DNA from: an uncultured Candidatus Saccharibacteria bacterium | GTDB lineage: Bacteria > Patescibacteriota > Minisyncoccia > Phycocordibacterales > XYD1-FULL-46-19 | Direction of reading: 5' to 3' | Assembly (NCBI GenBank): GCA_964639285.1 | Contig: CAZXCI010000001.1 | Location: forward strand, 42,343 to 106,342 | DNA length: 64,000 nt | In this document: positions 30,965-38,203 of the stretch, piece after piece | How positions within the stretch are numbered: the stretch's first letter is position 1 | How the letters are laid out: the number at the start of each line of letters is the position of its first letter | The notes under the pieces: generated by a model | Database searches by the model: none | Told to the model about the DNA's origin: nothing | Seen by the model: only the letters and a program-made list of their open reading frames with translations | Made by a program: the position numbers and the translations under genes

Positions 30965-33430
30965 ATGGAAAACTCGCGAGAGGATAAATCTGCGGAAAAT
31001 AAAGAAGGCCTCAATTTCTATGAGGTAGCTCAAAGACGAAGAGATCTAAGACAGGAATTAAAGAGAGTTAGGCCCGAACTCGATAACCAGGATCCGCTCC
31101 TTGATCGGGCTTATAAGGAACCACTGGCTGAGGTTGAGGAACAAGCCTCTCGTTTCAAAATCGCTGATTTCAAAAAGCCAGAAAATTCCTCTGGTTTGAG
31201 AGGGGCCATAGATTTTCTTAAAGGACAAAAAGCTTCTTACGAAAAGTCTTTGGAATCAGAAACTTCTCCGGCTATTGCCCCAGAATTAGCCGAGGTTCTC
31301 AGGATGAAAGAGATTGTCAAAAGATATAAAGAATTTCGTCTTCGTCGAATGCTGGAAATTCTTGATCGAAGCATCTCGCCCACCACCAGAAAAAGGAATG
31401 AGTCAATTTTGCGTCTAATCACAGAGGAAATCAAAAATAGTGAAGAAGCCCTACAAAAAATGGATCTTCCTCTCCTTCGCCAAGCGGAGCTTCTGGGCTA
31501 TAAAGAAGACTTGGCGCGCAGTGGTCATATTTGTATTACTCCCAGTGTGGCCAAAGATTTGGAGGCGATCGGGGATCGAATGCTTACGGGCAAACCGATT
31601 CTCCTTCATGGACCAACGGGGACGGGTAAAACTTCCTTGGCTCGTTTTGCCACAGCTCATTTTATGGGGAAGGATCCGGAGATGGTCTTTTGTAATCCGC
31701 AAACGAAACAATCAGATGTCTACGGTAAAACCGGACTTCGCGCTGTTCCTGGTGGGGAGGGAGCGATTGAAACAGTCGAGATATATGGTCCGCTAGCTCG
31801 AGCGATGATTGAAGGAAAGCCTGTTATCTTCGACGAGTTCACCGCTTTGCCAAAAGAGCAAATGGTCTTCATCAAGGGAATTTTTAATGCCAAAATCGGG
31901 GACAAAATAAATATTAGTGGGAATGGGGTTGTTGAAATCAAGCCTGGTTTCCAAATGATTTTCACGGCGAATTTGAAATCAGAGAAAAATCCAGAGAGAC
32001 AGGATCTTCCGCCAGAAATTGCTCGCGAGTTTGAACAAAATAATCTAGAAATTAAATACAATGACCCGGCCGAGACTTATGACATCATCCTCTCACGTCT
32101 CTTGGGAAAAGATGATTCCTTAGAACTCTCTTTCTTTGATTTGAATACTACTTTGCCTAAATTATGTGAGGCTATGTCTGAAATCCAAGAGTCTTACACC
32201 AACGAAACAGATAAAGAAGTAGCTCGTCGAGCGGGAGCAATGGATGCTTCTGGTAAGGTTTATTCTTTGAAAAAATTTGTGATGACTCAGGGCTCGATTG
32301 AGGCCATCTTATCTTCGTGGTTGGTTGAGAAGCAAACGGGTAAAAAGGAGAGAAGTTTTTCGGAATTCTTAGATGAACGTCTGAAGACGGCTTTAACTTT
32401 CAAAGAGTACCCTAAAGAGGATAGAATTTTGGCGGCTAAAATCTTAGCCTCTAAGGGTTTCTTATTGACACTCACGGCCAAAGATCTTGATTTGCCGGAG
32501 GATATATTTAGTTTTAATACCATCAGGCAAATGCGCGGAGAAGATGCGACTGAAGAATTAAAAAATAAATCAGGAGACGTTAAACGGCTTAATTTGCGCG
32601 AAGTGGCCGAATTGGATCCCTTCAACAAGAGAGCTAACATGCTAAGACAACAGGCGGAAGATCTCCTCGGCCTCGGTGATCGAGAAGGGGATCCTTTTTT
32701 GAGTGATTTTGACAGAGCGTTTGGGGGAGTTTTTGCTGGAGAGAAAAAGGGTATTATTTCCACCCCCTTCACCTACACCAACCCCGACACTAACCAGGTG
32801 GAACTCCAAGAAACCATCACTCTTGATCTCGAAGCTAAACTCCAATCAACTCTCGCTTTCTACCAATCCATCAACCTTGATATTCCCCCTGACTTTGAAG
32901 ACCAAATCCGTGACATCTGGTCTCGTCATCAAGACGAGATTGAACAAGCCATTGCTACCCAAGGCTTCAATGACCTTCTCCTCCTTCCCCCCACCCCTAA
33001 TCTCCCAGACTTAGCAAACAAAACCGAGATGGAACAAGGCTACTGGACTTCCGACAACTTCACCGAAGGTGGCGGTTTCGCCCAAGCCAAGAGCCAAAAC
33101 ACTAACCAAACCCGTCTTCTCTTAGTCCACCACACCCAAAATCTCCAAGACCACCCTCTCCTCAAGCAAACTCTCAATATCAAGGGCCAAGACGTTAACT
33201 TAAGTGAAGCCCTCACCTTAGAAGACTACCTTCTCTTCCAGAGACAATATTTTGCTCAAAACAACAAACACTTAGATGAAGACGGCTGGACCTGGCTAGC
33301 CACTCATTCCGGCCCTCGCCTGGTCTGCGCCCGCTGGTTTCCTGGCGATCACCGGCTCCGCGTCGATGCGGGTGACCTCACCAGCCAGGATGGCTATCTC
33401 GGTGTCCGCCCCACCCGCTGTTTCTTGTGA
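30965..33430 (+). CDS. DGR target protein 1: AAA+ (MoxR/CobS-like, AAA_5) ATPase fused to C-terminal C-type-lectin-fold variable domain
   Basis: Walker A ILLHGPTGTGKTSLARFA, Walker B PVIFDEFTAL. The C-terminal 225 aa are identical to the tail of ORF 37193-38155 and end in VR1 (GPRLVCARWFPGDHRLRVDAGDLTSQDGYLGVRPTRCF). Confidence 0.75.
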   Translation: MENSREDKSAENKEGLNFYEVAQRRRDLRQELKRVRPELDNQDPLLDRAYKEPLAEVEEQASRFKIADFKKPENSSGLRGAIDFLKGQKASYEKSLESETSPAIAPELAEVLRMKEIVKRYKEFRLRRMLEILDRSISPTTRKRNESILRLITEEIKNSEEALQKMDLPLLRQAELLGYKEDLARSGHICITPSVAKDLEAIGDRMLTGKPILLHGPTGTGKTSLARFATAHFMGKDPEMVFCNPQTKQSDVYGKTGLRAVPGGEGAIETVEIYGPLARAMIEGKPVIFDEFTALPKEQMVFIKGIFNAKIGDKINISGNGVVEIKPGFQMIFTANLKSEKNPERQDLPPEIAREFEQNNLEIKYNDPAETYDIILSRLLGKDDSLELSFFDLNTTLPKLCEAMSEIQESYTNETDKEVARRAGAMDASGKVYSLKKFVMTQGSIEAILSSWLVEKQTGKKERSFSEFLDERLKTALTFKEYPKEDRILAAKILASKGFLLTLTAKDLDLPEDIFSFNTIRQMRGEDATEELKNKSGDVKRLNLREVAELDPFNKRANMLRQQAEDLLGLGDREGDPFLSDFDRAFGGVFAGEKKGIISTPFTYTNPDTNQVELQETITLDLEAKLQSTLAFYQSINLDIPPDFEDQIRDIWSRHQDEIEQAIATQGFNDLLLLPPTPNLPDLANKTEMEQGYWTSDNFTEGGGFAQAKSQNTNQTRLLLVHHTQNLQDHPLLKQTLNIKGQDVNLSEALTLEDYLLFQRQYFAQNNKHLDEDGWTWLATHSGPRLVCARWFPGDHRLRVDAGDLTSQDGYLGVRPTRCFL

Positions 33431-33478
33431 GGTTAGGTTGTATTTTTGATTTTGGTTATTGTTTGAGATTTTTGGTTT
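32765..33478 (+). repeat. 714-bp direct repeat copy A (C-terminal variable domain + VR + 3' flank)
   Basis: Identical to 37490-38203 where compared: the protein tail is identical over 225 aa, alternative-frame translations are identical, and the VR and 55 bp downstream are identical. Confidence 0.85.
33311..33423 (+). other. DGR variable repeat VR1
   Basis: 113-bp homology to TR (33702-33814). All 18 mismatches fall at positions where TR has adenine. GC-rich 3' end ggtgtccgccccacccgctgttt (IMH-like). Confidence 0.85.
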
Positions 33479-33701
33479 ATTTTTTAAAAATTCTTCGGTG
33501 AGTATGATTGATCTGACTTAGGGTCGGTCTGCCGAAGCGCTCAATAAAACTGAAGCTGGATTTGTTTTGAGAGCAAATTCATAAAGTCTTGATCTGTTAG
33601 AGTGGAAATAAAAGAAACAGCAGTTTTGCCTTGGGGAAGTGCCCTGATAAACGAAGTATTGTTTCCAAGAGAGCGGGGATAAAGCAAAACTAATGTGGGA
33701 C

Positions 33702-33814
33702 GGCCCTCGCCTGGTCAACGCCAACTGGAATCCTGACAATCACCAGCTCAACGTCAATGCGAATGACCTCACCAACCAGAATAGCAATCTCGGTGTCCGC
33801 CCCACCCGCTGTTT
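33702..33814 (+). other. DGR template repeat (TR)
   Basis: Encodes an AAY-rich template (GPRLVNANWNPDNHQLNVNANDLTNQNSNLGVRPTRCF). The listed ORF 33693-33998 is this template, not a gene. Confidence 0.85.
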
Positions 33815-34189
33815 TTATGCCAAGTTTCGAGAATATTTTATCCAACCTTGGGTCATCCGACCTATTTCTTGGAGTTTACTCTCAATCTCTAAATATTGCT
33901 TAGTGTCTATGATTTGGCAATTTAGAGAAAGGCGAAAAAGGATTTTGAGCAGTTCCACTTTAGTATTGGCTCGGAGGAGGACTTTTTCTTTTTCGTAGCG
34001 GGAGGATTGATTAGCTAGAGTAAAAATTTCCATTGATTCCAAAAGGGAATTTTCTAGTTTTTCTCCTAGGGTGTAACGCTCGTGTTTGGGAAATTTGAAG
34101 ATTAATTTGTGCGTAATCTCGTATAAGACGAGAAGTTTGATAACAATTGGTATCTCTAATTTTGAATAATCACAATGGCCGTTGTCCAT
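33815..34189 (-). CDS. avd: Avd-like accessory variability determinant (four-helix-bundle protein, TIGR02436-like)
   Basis: 124 aa. DYSKLEIPIVIKLL...FPKHERYTLGEKLENSLLE...ANTKVELLKILFRLSLNCQIIDTKQYLEIESKLQEIGRMTQGWIK matches the bAvd/IVS-protein pattern. On the opposite strand to RT, with a 15-bp overlap of their 5' ends. Confidence 0.65.
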   Translation of the reverse strand: MDNGHCDYSKLEIPIVIKLLVLYEITHKLIFKFPKHERYTLGEKLENSLLESMEIFTLANQSSRYEKEKVLLRANTKVELLKILFRLSLNCQIIDTKQYLEIESKLQEIGRMTQGWIKYSRNLA

Positions 34190-35155
34190 AAAAGTTATGA
34201 CGAATTATTTAGCCTTTATAATCTTTTTCGTGCCTGGAGGAAGTTTCGGCGGGGCAAGACCAGAAAAAAAGATATTCTGGATTACGAATTGCATTTGGAA
34301 GACAACCTCTTTAATTTATATGAAGCTTTATGCCAGGATATTTACGAACATTCAGCTTATCAATATTTTCAAATTTTTGACAATAAAAAGAGGGATATCT
34401 CTAAAGCGGAGGTGAGAGATAGAATTGTCCACCAAATTATTTATGATTATATACTTGGTATCTTTGAACCAGACTTTATATCCGATTCTTATGCTTCCAG
34501 ATTAAATAAAGGATCATACAAAGCTCTCGGGGCTTTTCAGTACTTTATCAAACTTAATCATTACTCTCAAAAAACTTGCTTTGTTCTGAAGTGCGATGTT
34601 AAAAAATATTTTGATAACATTAGTCACGAGATCCTTCTCCGTCTGATTAAAGAAAGAGTTGTTGATGATAAAGTATTTTTTATTATTCAAAAAATAATAA
34701 AAAGTTATTCTTCCGGTGATAATCGAGGTATTCCTCTTGGCAATATCACGAGCCAGATTTTTGCTAACATTTACCTCAATCAACTGGATCATTATGTTAA
34801 AAAAGAATTAGGTTGCCGTTTTTATGTTAGGTACAACGATGATTTTGTCATTCTTTCAGAATCTTCCCGTTGACTGGAAGAAATCCGAAGCAAAATAATT
34901 GCTTTTTCAGAAGAAGAGTTATCTCTAAATATTCCTCTTGGAAAAACAAGTTTGAGGAAAATAACTTGGGGCGTGGATTTTCTCGGATTTACTGTCCTGC
35001 CGGGGGCGATTCTCTTAAGAGACAAGACGAAAAGTAAGATGTTTGCCAATATTAGCTCACGTAATATCCATTCATATTTTGGCATTTTAAAGCACTGTAA
35101 TTCTTATAACCTGAGGCGGAAGATACTCTCAATGGATAAACTGGACAGAGTTTGA
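34175..35155 (+). CDS. DGR reverse transcriptase (single frame interrupted by one in-frame TGA at 34871-34873)
   Basis: N-terminal SYDELFSLYNLFRAWRKFRRGK. RT motif IPLGNITSQIFANIYLNQLDHYV. YVRYNDDFVIL (YxDD). After the TGA the same frame continues into the thumb region ...WGVDFLGFTV... ending at 35155. Total 326 codons. Confidence 0.85.
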
Positions 35156-35167
35156 TAAAATATTGGC

Positions 35168-37171
35168 ATGGAAGAGCCTAATGATATCGAGACAAAAAAT
35201 GGAGAGGATATATCCCCAGAGACAGAAAATGCCCACGCTGAGGCGGTGGCCTTGGTGGAGAAAAATCGCGACTTTTTTGAACATTACGCTAAGGGGAAGA
35301 TTCAAATTGAACCGGCACCGGCGGGGCTGGGGACTTTTGCCTTTGATCTAGAAAAAAATACGATTTATCTCAACTCGCTTTTTTTTCAAAAAATGGGGTT
35401 GCCCGAAGAGAAAACAATTTTTGCTACTCTCCACGAGATCGAGCACTTTATGGAAAAAATCCAAATTCTCTCGGAGGAAGGCGGGCAAAGAACTTTTACC
35501 AAATTTCTCTCCCGTCTTAAGGCCTCGCGTGCTTTCTCTTTGATAGATAATTGTGTGGCTGATATCAGGCAGAATCGAGCGGTTATCTCAAAAACCAATA
35601 GAGGGATGGCTGAGCTGGAGACGACGATGTACCAGGAAGATCTTTTTGCGGAAACCGATTTTCTTGCCCGACCTCGACATATTCAATTTAGTGAAGCGCT
35701 TTTGCGGGAATCGCGAGTGCCGAGTGAGAAGTGCCAAGTGGCGCCCGAAGTGAGACAGGCGCTGGAAGAAATAGCCAAAGTTTCCAATCTGTTGGAAGTG
35801 ATGACCAATCCGGAGACTCCGATGTCTTTACGCTTGAAATTGCAAGACAAATTTATCTGGCCCAAGGTGCAAGCTCTTTTGGATCAAGACATTGAAGAGA
35901 AGAAAAAACAAAAGGAAGAAGATAAAAAGAAAAAAGGAGGCGCCGATACTCTCGATGGAGCGGAAGGGGCGGAAGGCGGTGCGGGCGATGGGGGAGCCGG
36001 CGAAAATGATAATAAAGAAAGAGGGAAAAAAGGAGGAGATAACAAAGCTCAAACAGAAGACGGGGAAGAGAGTCAGGGAGGAGAAGGAGAGAGTAAGGCG
36101 GGTGGCGAAAATGATGAAGAAGAAACTGATCCCAACAAAATTTTTGCAAAGGATTATGAGGAGGCCGAGAGCAAATTCCCTGAGGCCGTTCCGTTAGAGA
36201 AAATTGAGGAGGCCTTCAAAAAATGGCAAGAGGCGCAAAAAAACCAAAATACCCCCGACCAGGCTGATGAAGCCTACGCCCAAAATCTTGGCGTGAAGAA
36301 GGAAGCCTTACAAAATTATCGTCGACTAGTTGAGTCCCTGGAGAAAATTGTGAATCCTGAAACTGATATGCCCGTGATTGAAGAATTGCGGAATCTTTTT
36401 AATCGGATAATCTCCAAGAGACTTAAATTGGCCCAAGCTCCTAAATACCCGGTATCGGAGGGGGACGAGTTAGTTGACCCGGCGCAATTGGTGGCCGACG
36501 TTAAAGCGGGGAATTTTGAGCCCAAGGTCTGGGAAGATGTAGAGATCAAGGAAAAGAAGGGTGACAAATTCGGCGAAGTGGAGATCACTCTTATCTGTGA
36601 CCGTTCTGGTTCGATGAATGGGGTTAAAGCGGAGGAACAAAGAAAGTCGGCAGTCTTAGTGATGGAGGCACTGAAAGAATTTGCCGAACTTTGCGAGCAG
36701 GAAAAAATAAATATTGATAAACCTTTGGAAGTTAGATCAGAGATTTACAGCTTTGCCAGTAGTGAGGATGACGACAAACCACTGAAGAAGATGTCCCCGG
36801 AGCTAGGCGAGGTCGAGCGGATAAATGTTTTAGAGAAGCTCAAAGAGATAACTGGTTCCACCACCGATTTTCGTTGTTTGGAAGCGATTGCCGCTAATCT
36901 CTCAGAAGAAATCAGGATCAAATTAAAAATTGCGGAATTGAAAAAGATCGTGATTGTCTTCACTGATGGCGAGAGCGACGATCCGGTTCGAACCCAAGTG
37001 AATCTTAAGAATTTACGCGACAACGGCGTTTTTGTTATCGGTGTGGGCATCACTTCCGCTGGTCAATCAGTTTTATCAACCTATGCGCCTGAAGCTCAAG
37101 TGGTGGAAGATGTCTCTCGTCTGCCCCTTGTTTTGGCCGAGCTTCTCAAGGAGCATTTACATAATCTCTAA
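35168..37171 (+). CDS. vWA-domain protein with N-terminal HExxH region and acidic low-complexity linker (CobT-like partner of the AAA ATPase)
   Basis: HEIEHF (HExxH). A long E/K/G/D-rich linker (KKKQKEEDKKKKGGADTLDGAEGAEGG...). MIDAS DxSxS in EITLICDRSGSMNG. Von Willebrand A fold at the C-terminus. Confidence 0.7.
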   Translation: MEEPNDIETKNGEDISPETENAHAEAVALVEKNRDFFEHYAKGKIQIEPAPAGLGTFAFDLEKNTIYLNSLFFQKMGLPEEKTIFATLHEIEHFMEKIQILSEEGGQRTFTKFLSRLKASRAFSLIDNCVADIRQNRAVISKTNRGMAELETTMYQEDLFAETDFLARPRHIQFSEALLRESRVPSEKCQVAPEVRQALEEIAKVSNLLEVMTNPETPMSLRLKLQDKFIWPKVQALLDQDIEEKKKQKEEDKKKKGGADTLDGAEGAEGGAGDGGAGENDNKERGKKGGDNKAQTEDGEESQGGEGESKAGGENDEEETDPNKIFAKDYEEAESKFPEAVPLEKIEEAFKKWQEAQKNQNTPDQADEAYAQNLGVKKEALQNYRRLVESLEKIVNPETDMPVIEELRNLFNRIISKRLKLAQAPKYPVSEGDELVDPAQLVADVKAGNFEPKVWEDVEIKEKKGDKFGEVEITLICDRSGSMNGVKAEEQRKSAVLVMEALKEFAELCEQEKINIDKPLEVRSEIYSFASSEDDDKPLKKMSPELGEVERINVLEKLKEITGSTTDFRCLEAIAANLSEEIRIKLKIAELKKIVIVFTDGESDDPVRTQVNLKNLRDNGVFVIGVGITSAGQSVLSTYAPEAQVVEDVSRLPLVLAELLKEHLHNL

Positions 37172-37192: not shown

Positions 37193-38155
37193 ATGTCCCC
37201 CGAATCCCTCTCTCCCCACCCCGACCAAACCCAAGAGGAACTCCGTCCTCTCTATCAACAAAGACTCAATTCTCTCAAAGATCCTCTCCATCAAGGCCGT
37301 GATCAATATGCCCAAGACCTAAAGAACGGTCTCTTTGATGATCAAGAGGGTGAAGAACCAGGCCAAGGAGAGAAACGCCAAGAGGAAGCTCAACAAAAGC
37401 TTCTTAAACTCCTCGCCCAAGCCCAGAAACTCAAAGCTCTCCTCGACAGCGGAGAACCTCTTCCTCAATTATCTCCCGTCATCACCACTCCCTTCACCTA
37501 CACCAACCCCGACACTAACCAGGTGGAACTCCAAGAAACCATCACTCTTGATCTCGAAGCTAAACTCCAATCAACTCTCGCTTTCTACCAATCCATCAAC
37601 CTTGATATTCCCCCTGACTTTGAAGACCAAATCCGTGACATCTGGTCTCGTCATCAAGACGAGATTGAACAAGCCATTGCTACCCAAGGCTTCAATGACC
37701 TTCTCCTCCTTCCCCCCACCCCTAATCTCCCAGACTTAGCAAACAAAACCGAGATGGAACAAGGCTACTGGACTTCCGACAACTTCACCGAAGGTGGCGG
37801 TTTCGCCCAAGCCAAGAGCCAAAACACTAACCAAACCCGTCTTCTCTTAGTCCACCACACCCAAAATCTCCAAGACCACCCTCTCCTCAAGCAAACTCTC
37901 AATATCAAGGGCCAAGACGTTAACTTAAGTGAAGCCCTCACCTTAGAAGACTACCTTCTCTTCCAGAGACAATATTTTGCTCAAAACAACAAACACTTAG
38001 ATGAAGACGGCTGGACCTGGCTAGCCACTCATTCCGGCCCTCGCCTGGTCTGCGCCCGCTGGTTTCCTGGCGATCACCGGCTCCGCGTCGATGCGGGTGA
38101 CCTCACCAGCCAGGATGGCTATCTCGGTGTCCGCCCCACCCGCTGTTTCTTGTGA
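37193..38155 (+). CDS. DGR target protein 2: standalone C-type-lectin-fold variable protein
   Basis: 320 aa. Unique roughly 95-aa N-terminus, then the same 225-aa domain as target 1 ending in an identical VR. TATAAT at 37180-37185 only 7 nt upstream of the ATG. Confidence 0.7.
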   Translation: MSPESLSPHPDQTQEELRPLYQQRLNSLKDPLHQGRDQYAQDLKNGLFDDQEGEEPGQGEKRQEEAQQKLLKLLAQAQKLKALLDSGEPLPQLSPVITTPFTYTNPDTNQVELQETITLDLEAKLQSTLAFYQSINLDIPPDFEDQIRDIWSRHQDEIEQAIATQGFNDLLLLPPTPNLPDLANKTEMEQGYWTSDNFTEGGGFAQAKSQNTNQTRLLLVHHTQNLQDHPLLKQTLNIKGQDVNLSEALTLEDYLLFQRQYFAQNNKHLDEDGWTWLATHSGPRLVCARWFPGDHRLRVDAGDLTSQDGYLGVRPTRCFL

Positions 38156-38203
38156 GGTTAGGTTGTATTTTTGATTTTGGTTATTGTTTGAGATTTTTGG
38201 TTT
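37490..38203 (+). repeat. 714-bp direct repeat copy B
   Basis: See copy A (32765-33478). Confidence 0.85.
38036..38148 (+). other. DGR variable repeat VR2 (identical to VR1)
   Basis: Same 113 bp as VR1. Matches TR except at TR adenines. Confidence 0.8.

Follow-up and report, generated by a model that had tools for sequence, protein, structure and literature searches.

The 64,000-nucleotide stretch of DNA analysed here, referred to as the window, very probably carries the avd gene (accessory variability determinant) of a diversity-generating retroelement (DGR) from a Paceibacterota/Parcubacteria bacterium of the candidate phyla radiation (CPR). This DGR is of architecture B3; in it the starts of avd and of the reverse transcriptase (RT) gene diverge and are embedded in each other, and a structured RNA lies 5′ of the template repeat (TR). 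The TR occupies positions 33701–33814 on the plus strand (114 nt), and is followed by avd at 33815–34189 on the minus strand and by RT at 34175–35155 on the plus strand. These coordinates agree with a preliminary description of the same DNA, which had placed an inverted avd between TR and RT on the opposite strand, with its 5′ end overlapping the RT start by 15 bp and its stop codon abutting the last base of the TR.

Geometry of the cassette and its conservation in relatives

The stop codon of avd, read as the complement of 33815–33817, adjoins the last base of the TR (33814) with no gap. At its other end avd overlaps RT head-to-head by 15 nt (34175–34189, ATGGCCGTTGTCCAT), and direct reading of the sequence there gives two facing start codons in the form ATG-N9-CAT. 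Other ATG, GTG or TTG starts ahead of the conserved residues were sought in both avd and RT and none was found, so the overlap is independent of start-codon choice. In both Avd and RT the fifth codon is CAT (His), complementary to the ATG of the partner gene, and this is the reason for the near-invariant His5 in the Avd alignment.

Relatives of this Avd were compared at 20 genome loci and 59 metagenome loci. RT was divergent from avd, with the N-termini touching, at 18 of the 20 genome loci and at nearly all of the judgeable loci among the 59 from metagenomes. Of the roughly 75 related Paceibacterota/Parcubacteria loci where an avd could be recognised, nearly all have it fixed between TR and RT; the comparison with other CPR DGRs that had been suggested earlier thus returned the same layout. 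The ATG/ATG overlap measured 15 nt in 26 and 18 nt in 19 of 56 distinct loci, which together make 45. The distance from the end of the TR to the avd stop codon was 0–3 nt in 28 of 58 loci and no more than 14 nt in 49 of them, with a full span of 0–49 nt. The packing of the cassette is therefore conserved in dozens of relatives.

The only co-directional case among the fetched loci was L020 (JAKJDO010000007.1), the most distant Avd relative (30% identity), in which avd and RT are about 960 nt apart. No TR/VR pair was detected in the 6.8 kb of L020, and this locus is therefore unusable as a co-directional contrast. Within the same loci (L001–L079), Avd was better conserved than RT, with approximately 70–78% versus 60–70% identity to the window, and synonymous-site constraint does not explain this difference. 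In general, avd genes show very little conservation (Wu et al. 2018, PMC5758913).

Synonymous constraint and candidate promoters at the two starts

Normalised synonymous codon entropy was calculated at conserved residues, with codons threaded onto the protein alignments. RT codons 1–18 had an entropy of 0.33, compared to 0.71 for the rest of the gene (p=7e-7), and avd codons 1–13 had 0.49, compared to 0.80 for the rest (p=4e-4). Intermediate values extended as a tail to approximately codon 70 of RT, and abnormal synonymous conservation was found only around the two starts, at about 34151–34228, where a core of suppressed synonymous variation takes in both 5′ coding ends. The consensus of this frozen core (...GGTATTTCTAATTTTGAAAAATCATTATGAGTATTATCCATAAAAATTATGATGAATTATTTAGTCTTGATAAT...) contains a −10-like hexamer near each ATG, TCTAAT on the plus strand and CATAAT on the minus strand, and the conserved TCTAAT sits 15–20 nt 5′ of the RT ATG. 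No Shine-Dalgarno sequence was present in the core, which together with the −10-like hexamers would fit short-leader or leaderless mRNAs. RNA covariation was not seen on either strand of the region at about 34151–34228, and the constraint therefore acts at the level of the sequence. The tail over RT codons 20–70 was likewise searched for hidden RNA structure, and on neither strand did covariation exceed that of controls in which the partner strands were slid (slid controls).

We propose that avd would be transcribed divergently from RT, and that the signals which start transcription and translation of either gene would lie within the first 40–55 nt of the coding sequence of the other; on this proposal, synonymous sites at the starts would be frozen because the start signals are embedded in the partner gene. 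The core at 34151–34228 is thus a candidate bidirectional promoter and translation-initiation region, and part of the reduced synonymous variation could come from a general bias of gene starts towards A/T-rich codons. The geometry of the cassette in part dictates the inference of promoters: any promoter of avd has to be on the minus strand, within or beyond the 5′ coding region of RT. The preliminary description had expected separate promoters embedded in the coding 5′ ends of the two genes, and had suggested a look for promoter motifs at 34150–34230 on both strands. The synonymous conservation at both starts supports the presence of embedded signals, and −10-like hexamers do occur near the ATGs, but a consensus promoter/terminator scan did not rise above chance, with 4 sites against 2.6 ± 1.5 expected and none convincingly placed. 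With their starts locked head-to-head and their synonymous sites frozen, avd and RT present a compact natural bidirectional control region.

It is also conceivable, although we consider it rather doubtful, that RT has no promoter of its own and is reached by one long transcript running from the target gene or the TR through antisense avd. It is equally doubtful, as the second half of this reading, that the frozen sites are translation-initiation signals only and that the avd mRNA is fully antisense, with mutual antisense regulation. In phage BPP-1, avd-TR-brt are co-transcribed. The scan agrees with such a transcript to the extent that it found no plus-strand promoter-like site upstream of 34175 and no conserved terminator after the TR; the sole terminator-like site, a hairpin at 33849–33864, is specific to the window, and we rejected it as a terminator since it is not conserved in relatives. 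However, the conserved TCTAAT just 5′ of the RT ATG speaks for a start at RT itself, and the RNA structure supported by covariation stops at the end of the TR. Co-transcription and an RT promoter are, moreover, not mutually exclusive. Our preferred reading is divergent transcription from embedded starts.

Template repeat, variable repeats and target genes

The 114-nt repeat is present three times on the plus strand of the window, as the TR (33701–33814), as variable repeat VR1 (33310–33423) and as VR2 (38035–38148). VR1 is 84% identical to the TR, and both VR copies differ from it at 18 positions, all 18 of which are A in the TR. This adenine specificity (18/18 mismatches) is the TR/VR signature of a DGR, here with one TR and two VRs. 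VR1 ends 7 nt before the stop codon of a gene for 821 aa (target 1, 30965–33430, plus strand), which contains an AAA_5 (MoxR-like) ATPase domain (PF07728, E 5e-11) and has VR1 at its C-terminus. VR2 is likewise placed in a gene for 320 aa (target 2, 37193–38155, plus strand), the 3′ 666 nt of which are identical to target 1.

The two VRs are 100% identical to each other. They are enclosed by a perfect 714-bp duplication (32765–33478 = 37490–38203), through which the 821-aa and 320-aa targets share identical C-terminal 222 codons. The contig of an independent strain, L080 (95.4% DNA identity), breaks at both copies of the duplication. Identical VRs within such a duplication are unexpected for an active DGR, and could result from recent duplication, gene conversion or assembly collapse.

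Between RT and target 2 lies a gene for a VWA-domain protein (35168–37171, plus strand; PF00092 VWA, E 5e-11), which is probably partnered with the AAA_5 ATPase rather than being a core part of the DGR. As its main target the DGR has the AAA_5 (MoxR-like) ATPase, whose C-terminus is fused to the variable region, and a VWA gene lies nearby; the DGR therefore diversifies one component of a MoxR/VWA-type pair.

The reverse transcriptase gene and the state of this copy

The RT gene spans 326 codons (34175–35155, plus strand; RVT_1, E 3.9e-22). Its translation carries IPLGNITSQ, corresponding to motif 4 ([LIV]GxxxSQ), and YNDD, corresponding to YxDD. The GxxxSQ pattern is typical of DGR RTs. The RT of the window had no match to a DGR-specific RT model in the profile libraries.

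The reading frame of RT is interrupted at codon 233 by a TGA (34871–34873, context CGT TGA CTG), a position at which 65 relatives have a variable sense codon (K/E/D/R/N). An alternative genetic code was rejected as the explanation, since in this genome TGA serves as a normal stop, terminating 14 of 60 long ORFs. L080 shares the TGA, and its frame downstream is open to the same stop codon. Between the window and L080, dN/dS of RT was 0.11 downstream of the TGA (21 synonymous and 11 non-synonymous differences) and 0.09 upstream. UGA-C is a weak terminator context. The shared TGA and the purifying selection downstream of it suggest read-through rather than decay, and judging from these comparisons, RT may be read through or may be tolerated as a split protein. 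The TRs of the window and L080 are identical and their VRs differ at TR-adenine positions, with 13 adenine mismatches and 3 non-adenine mismatches between the TR and VR of L080. Differences of VRs at TR adenines next to an identical TR would indicate that the DGR has been active in this lineage.

This copy may not be active now, because of the in-frame TGA in RT and the identical VRs. One could go further and regard it as a decaying relic, in which a nonsense mutation truncated RT and the orientation of avd has no functional meaning, but we think this unlikely. The TGA at 34871–34873, being an ordinary stop elsewhere in the genome, and the 100% identity of VR1 and VR2 are what such decay could leave behind. 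A relic is, however, difficult to reconcile with a second strain that shares the TGA and keeps the frame open to the same stop, with a dN/dS nearly as low after the TGA as before it, with VRs that differ at TR adenines between the two strains, and with an avd that has 0 non-synonymous and 4 synonymous differences from that of L080. This counter-evidence has to be read with the caveat that the differences between the window and L080 are clustered, and recombination could have imported tracts that were already under selection.

RNA structure on the two sides of the template repeat

In BPP-1, the TR needs a structured spacer (Sp) of 140 nt on its 3′ side, which contains the priming adenosine (A56), forms a stop duplex with an upstream segment of 20 nt, and carries stem-loops that bind Avd and RT (Handa et al., bioRxiv 10.1101/2023.10.23.563531). 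Putative Avd-binding stem-loops were reported downstream of the TR in 207 of 278 Avd-containing DGRs, CPR examples included (bioRxiv 10.1101/2023.10.23.563531). In the window, the corresponding segment is antisense to avd, and if the cassette worked exactly like that of BPP-1, Sp RNA would be encoded there and the 3′ half of avd would be in dual use. The requirement of BPP-1 for 140 nt after the TR with priming from A56 of Sp, and the high proportion of DGRs with predicted downstream stem-loops, make this a reasonable expectation, and a dual constraint could cause the better conservation of Avd relative to RT described above.

The alignments did not bear this expectation out. Synonymous sites of avd codons 14–124 were near saturation (entropy 0.80 overall and 0.71–0.84 in the 3′ third), and the spacer separating the avd stop from the TR end is of variable length (0–49 nt). 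RNAalifold found no helix downstream of the TR in 53 loci. In a dedicated covariation test of the 150 nt after the TR, compensatory changes, meaning changes on both sides of a pair, occurred in 2 pairs/6 cells, compared to 1–3 pairs/1–7 cells in slid controls, and there was no consensus pairing between the 40 nt upstream and the downstream segment. On these grounds we rejected the antisense strand of avd as an Sp analogue, and consider an operation exactly like that of BPP-1 to be improbable, more so than decay of the copy.

Upstream of the TR the result was different. The 270-nt stretch from VR1 to the TR is conserved throughout and folds by RNAalifold into a covarying structure, from which we defined a conserved structured non-coding RNA between VR1 and the TR (33493–33700, plus strand; conserved in 45 loci). 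The model, built from 44 loci, comprises 73 pairs in 13 helices. In these loci, 93.5% of cells could pair, compared to 38–45% in slid controls, and compensatory changes occurred in 29 pairs/161 cells, compared to 13–18 pairs/23–47 cells in slid controls; 0 of 500 shuffles reached the observed values. The RNA of the window itself (33487–33831) did not exceed shuffled sequence in stability (z = +0.59), and a search of Rfam with the TR region and the upstream RNA, at the gathering threshold and at E<=10, returned no family.

All helices mentioned here are on the plus strand. H1 (33493–99/33531–37), H2 (33506–10/33525–29) and H3 (33538–40/33602–04) are among the best-supported, and H6 (33622–32/33681–91) has 7 of its 11 pairs covarying. 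H7 (33633–36/33642–45), given by RNAalifold, also counts among the helices with strong covariation. A GGATAAT upstream of the TR was considered as a −10 box and rejected, since it is one strand of the covarying helix H6. Two duplexes involve the TR. H9 (33695–33707/33792–33805), another of the best-supported helices with 5 covarying pairs, joins the 5′ flank and start of the TR to its GC-rich 3′ part, and H5 (33615–21/33808–14) joins the last 7 nt of the TR to an upstream strand. H5 is weakly supported, by one covarying pair that amounts essentially to two linked haplotypes, and in the larger clade it is interrupted by an internal U-C mismatch. In both duplexes, the strands that partner the 3′ part of the TR lie upstream and not downstream of the TR. 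The upstream RNA of a few loci contains, between H3 and H5, an inserted hairpin of some 40 nt (CACCCTGTTAAAT...ATTTAACAGGG; L021:1573-1917 and L024:2950-3294, alignment columns 210–245), with a similar sequence in L013; this insertion is possibly a small mobile element or an expansion element.

From the covariation pattern, we propose that the structured RNA at 33493–33700 would clamp both ends of the TR and that nothing structured would be needed downstream, and, as part of the same proposal, that avd can therefore sit antisense right after the last TR base. The structured accessory RNA of this clade may thus lie 5′ of the TR and not 3′ as in phage BPP-1. More tentatively, and with somewhat less than even confidence, we suggest that the DGR RNA could be permuted relative to that of BPP-1, so that the RNA which positions RT and Avd, and which possibly provides cis-priming, would lie 5′ of the TR, close on both TR ends and finish at the last TR base. 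If this were true, it would be the reason why avd can sit antisense directly after the TR, and published searches for Sp-like elements downstream of the TR would be misplaced for most CPR DGRs. The upstream RNA and the lack of a downstream spacer suggest that RNA needs are arranged otherwise than in the Bordetella phage element.

Identity and fold of the avd product

According to the ORF listing of the window, the minus-strand ORF at 33815–34189 encodes 124 aa from an ATG start and contains the peptide motifs quoted in the preliminary description. A Pfam profile search with this ORF matched PF22296 (bAvd) with 61.1 bits (E 1.7e-16), well over the gathering score of 40 bits. The NCBIfam equivalog NF033474 'DGR protein Avd' (DivGenRetAVD) matched over the full model with 75 bits, narrowly below its cut-off of 80, and there were weak matches to PF05635 (E 9e-4) and, below cut-off, to TIGR02436. 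The profile search that had been proposed earlier, with TIGR02436 or an Avd model, thus succeeded with PF22296 and stayed under the cut-off with TIGR02436.

A search of PDB sequences with the Avd profile alone returned nothing relevant, and therefore a fold search with Foldseek was needed. The AlphaFold model of Avd (pLDDT 88.8) has helices at residues 8–30, 35–61, 64–90 and 96–123, forming a four-helix bundle. It matched the Avd chains of 4dwl, the free Avd of Bordetella phage, and of 8ub7, in which Avd is within an RT-Avd-RNA particle, with TM 0.77–0.90 and rmsd 1.4–1.8 Å. The top Foldseek match was 2gsc, a hypothetical protein.

Searches found 233 homologues of this Avd; the best 120 of these 233 were 70–100% identical and mostly 124–125 aa long, and those with names were from Parcubacteria, Paceibacterota, Minisyncoccia or Patescibacteria. 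Relatives were also sought among viral contigs, and none was found there. Variation among the avd relatives was concentrated at third codon positions of the minus-strand frame, which rules out a better gene on the plus strand. A stronger plus-strand coding signal across 33815–34189, which would have told against the original reading, was thus absent. Two plus-strand ORFs (33693–33998 and 33757–33903) were considered as genes and rejected as unsupported read-through of the TR frame. The former (101 aa) begins 8 nt 5′ of the TR, crosses the TR in-frame and continues into antisense avd, and is a TR-frame artefact and no gene.

The avd ORF is therefore not a chance occurrence and its annotation as Avd is secure on the combined evidence of PF22296, NF033474, AlphaFold, Foldseek and synteny, so that the four-helix-bundle Avd first described from the ORF stands on a profile score of 61 bits against 40 and on a fold shared with the Avd of Bordetella phage. 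The weak PF05635 and sub-cut-off TIGR02436 matches, the hypothetical protein 2gsc as best fold match and the shortfall of NF033474 would also be seen with a generic 23S rRNA intervening-sequence/S23-family four-helix-bundle protein that merely stands beside RT, but with bAvd well over its cut-off, a model that fits BPP-1 Avd and a gene fixed within nearly all of the DGR loci compared, this can be dismissed as extremely improbable. S23-family proteins (PF05635, TIGR02436; PDB 2gsc, 2rld) share their fold with Avd, which belongs to the same superfamily; they mostly occur without linkage to RT, whereas the gene of the window has a fixed place within a DGR cassette and scores best with bAvd models.

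By homology with BPP-1, Avd is expected to form a homopentamer that binds RT and DGR RNA. We infer that, as a pentameric barrel, it would bind RT together with the TR-containing RNA, and that this binding would license cis-primed, adenine-mutagenic cDNA synthesis, as in the phage.

Comparison with known DGR systems

Three architectures were distinguished by Wu et al. 2018 (Nucleic Acids Res, PMC5758913), B1 (avd-TR-RT), B2 (avd-RT-TR) and B3 (TR-(avd)-RT), where parentheses denote the reverse strand, and B3 was reported for 90% of CPR DGRs. The cassette of the window, which reads target(VR) – TR – (avd, reverse strand) – RT, is of architecture B3. The inverted avd had been considered unusual at the outset; this is true among characterised DGRs, but not in the CPR lineage, where B3 is the rule. 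As in the CPR B3 DGRs described by Wu et al. 2018 (PMC5758913), the host belongs to CPR, and TR, reverse avd and RT follow one another in the same order and orientation. The target carries, upstream of the VR, a P-loop NTPase domain as in their category g1, and nothing essential differs. The inverted avd is therefore a real but ordinary finding, as the layout has already been catalogued as usual in CPR, and as one more example of it the window changes little.

The conserved start overlap, the frozen control region and, above all, the upstream RNA without a downstream spacer are another matter, since we found no earlier description of them in the literature examined. The accessible portion of the text of Wu et al. 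2018 (PMC5758913) makes no mention of the 15/18-nt overlap, of the avd stop abutting the TR or of an upstream structured RNA. CPR is the lineage with the most known DGR diversity, and a different arrangement of the RNA in it, if confirmed, would guide efforts to reconstitute CPR DGRs for diversifying proteins.

The Bordetella phage BPP-1 DGR (mtd-avd-TR-brt) is of architecture B1. It has in common with the window the four-helix bundle of Avd, the GxxxSQ and YxDD motifs of RT, adenine-specific TR-to-VR differences, a GC-rich 3′ end that TR and VR have in common, and placement of the VR at the target gene's 3′ end. The two systems differ in the position of avd, which in BPP-1 is co-directional and upstream of the TR, whereas in the window it is antisense and begins at the base after the TR. 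They differ also in their RNA: BPP-1 has 140 nt of structured Sp RNA after the TR, whereas the clade of the window has no conserved structure there and instead has approximately 210 nt of covarying structure 5′ of the TR.
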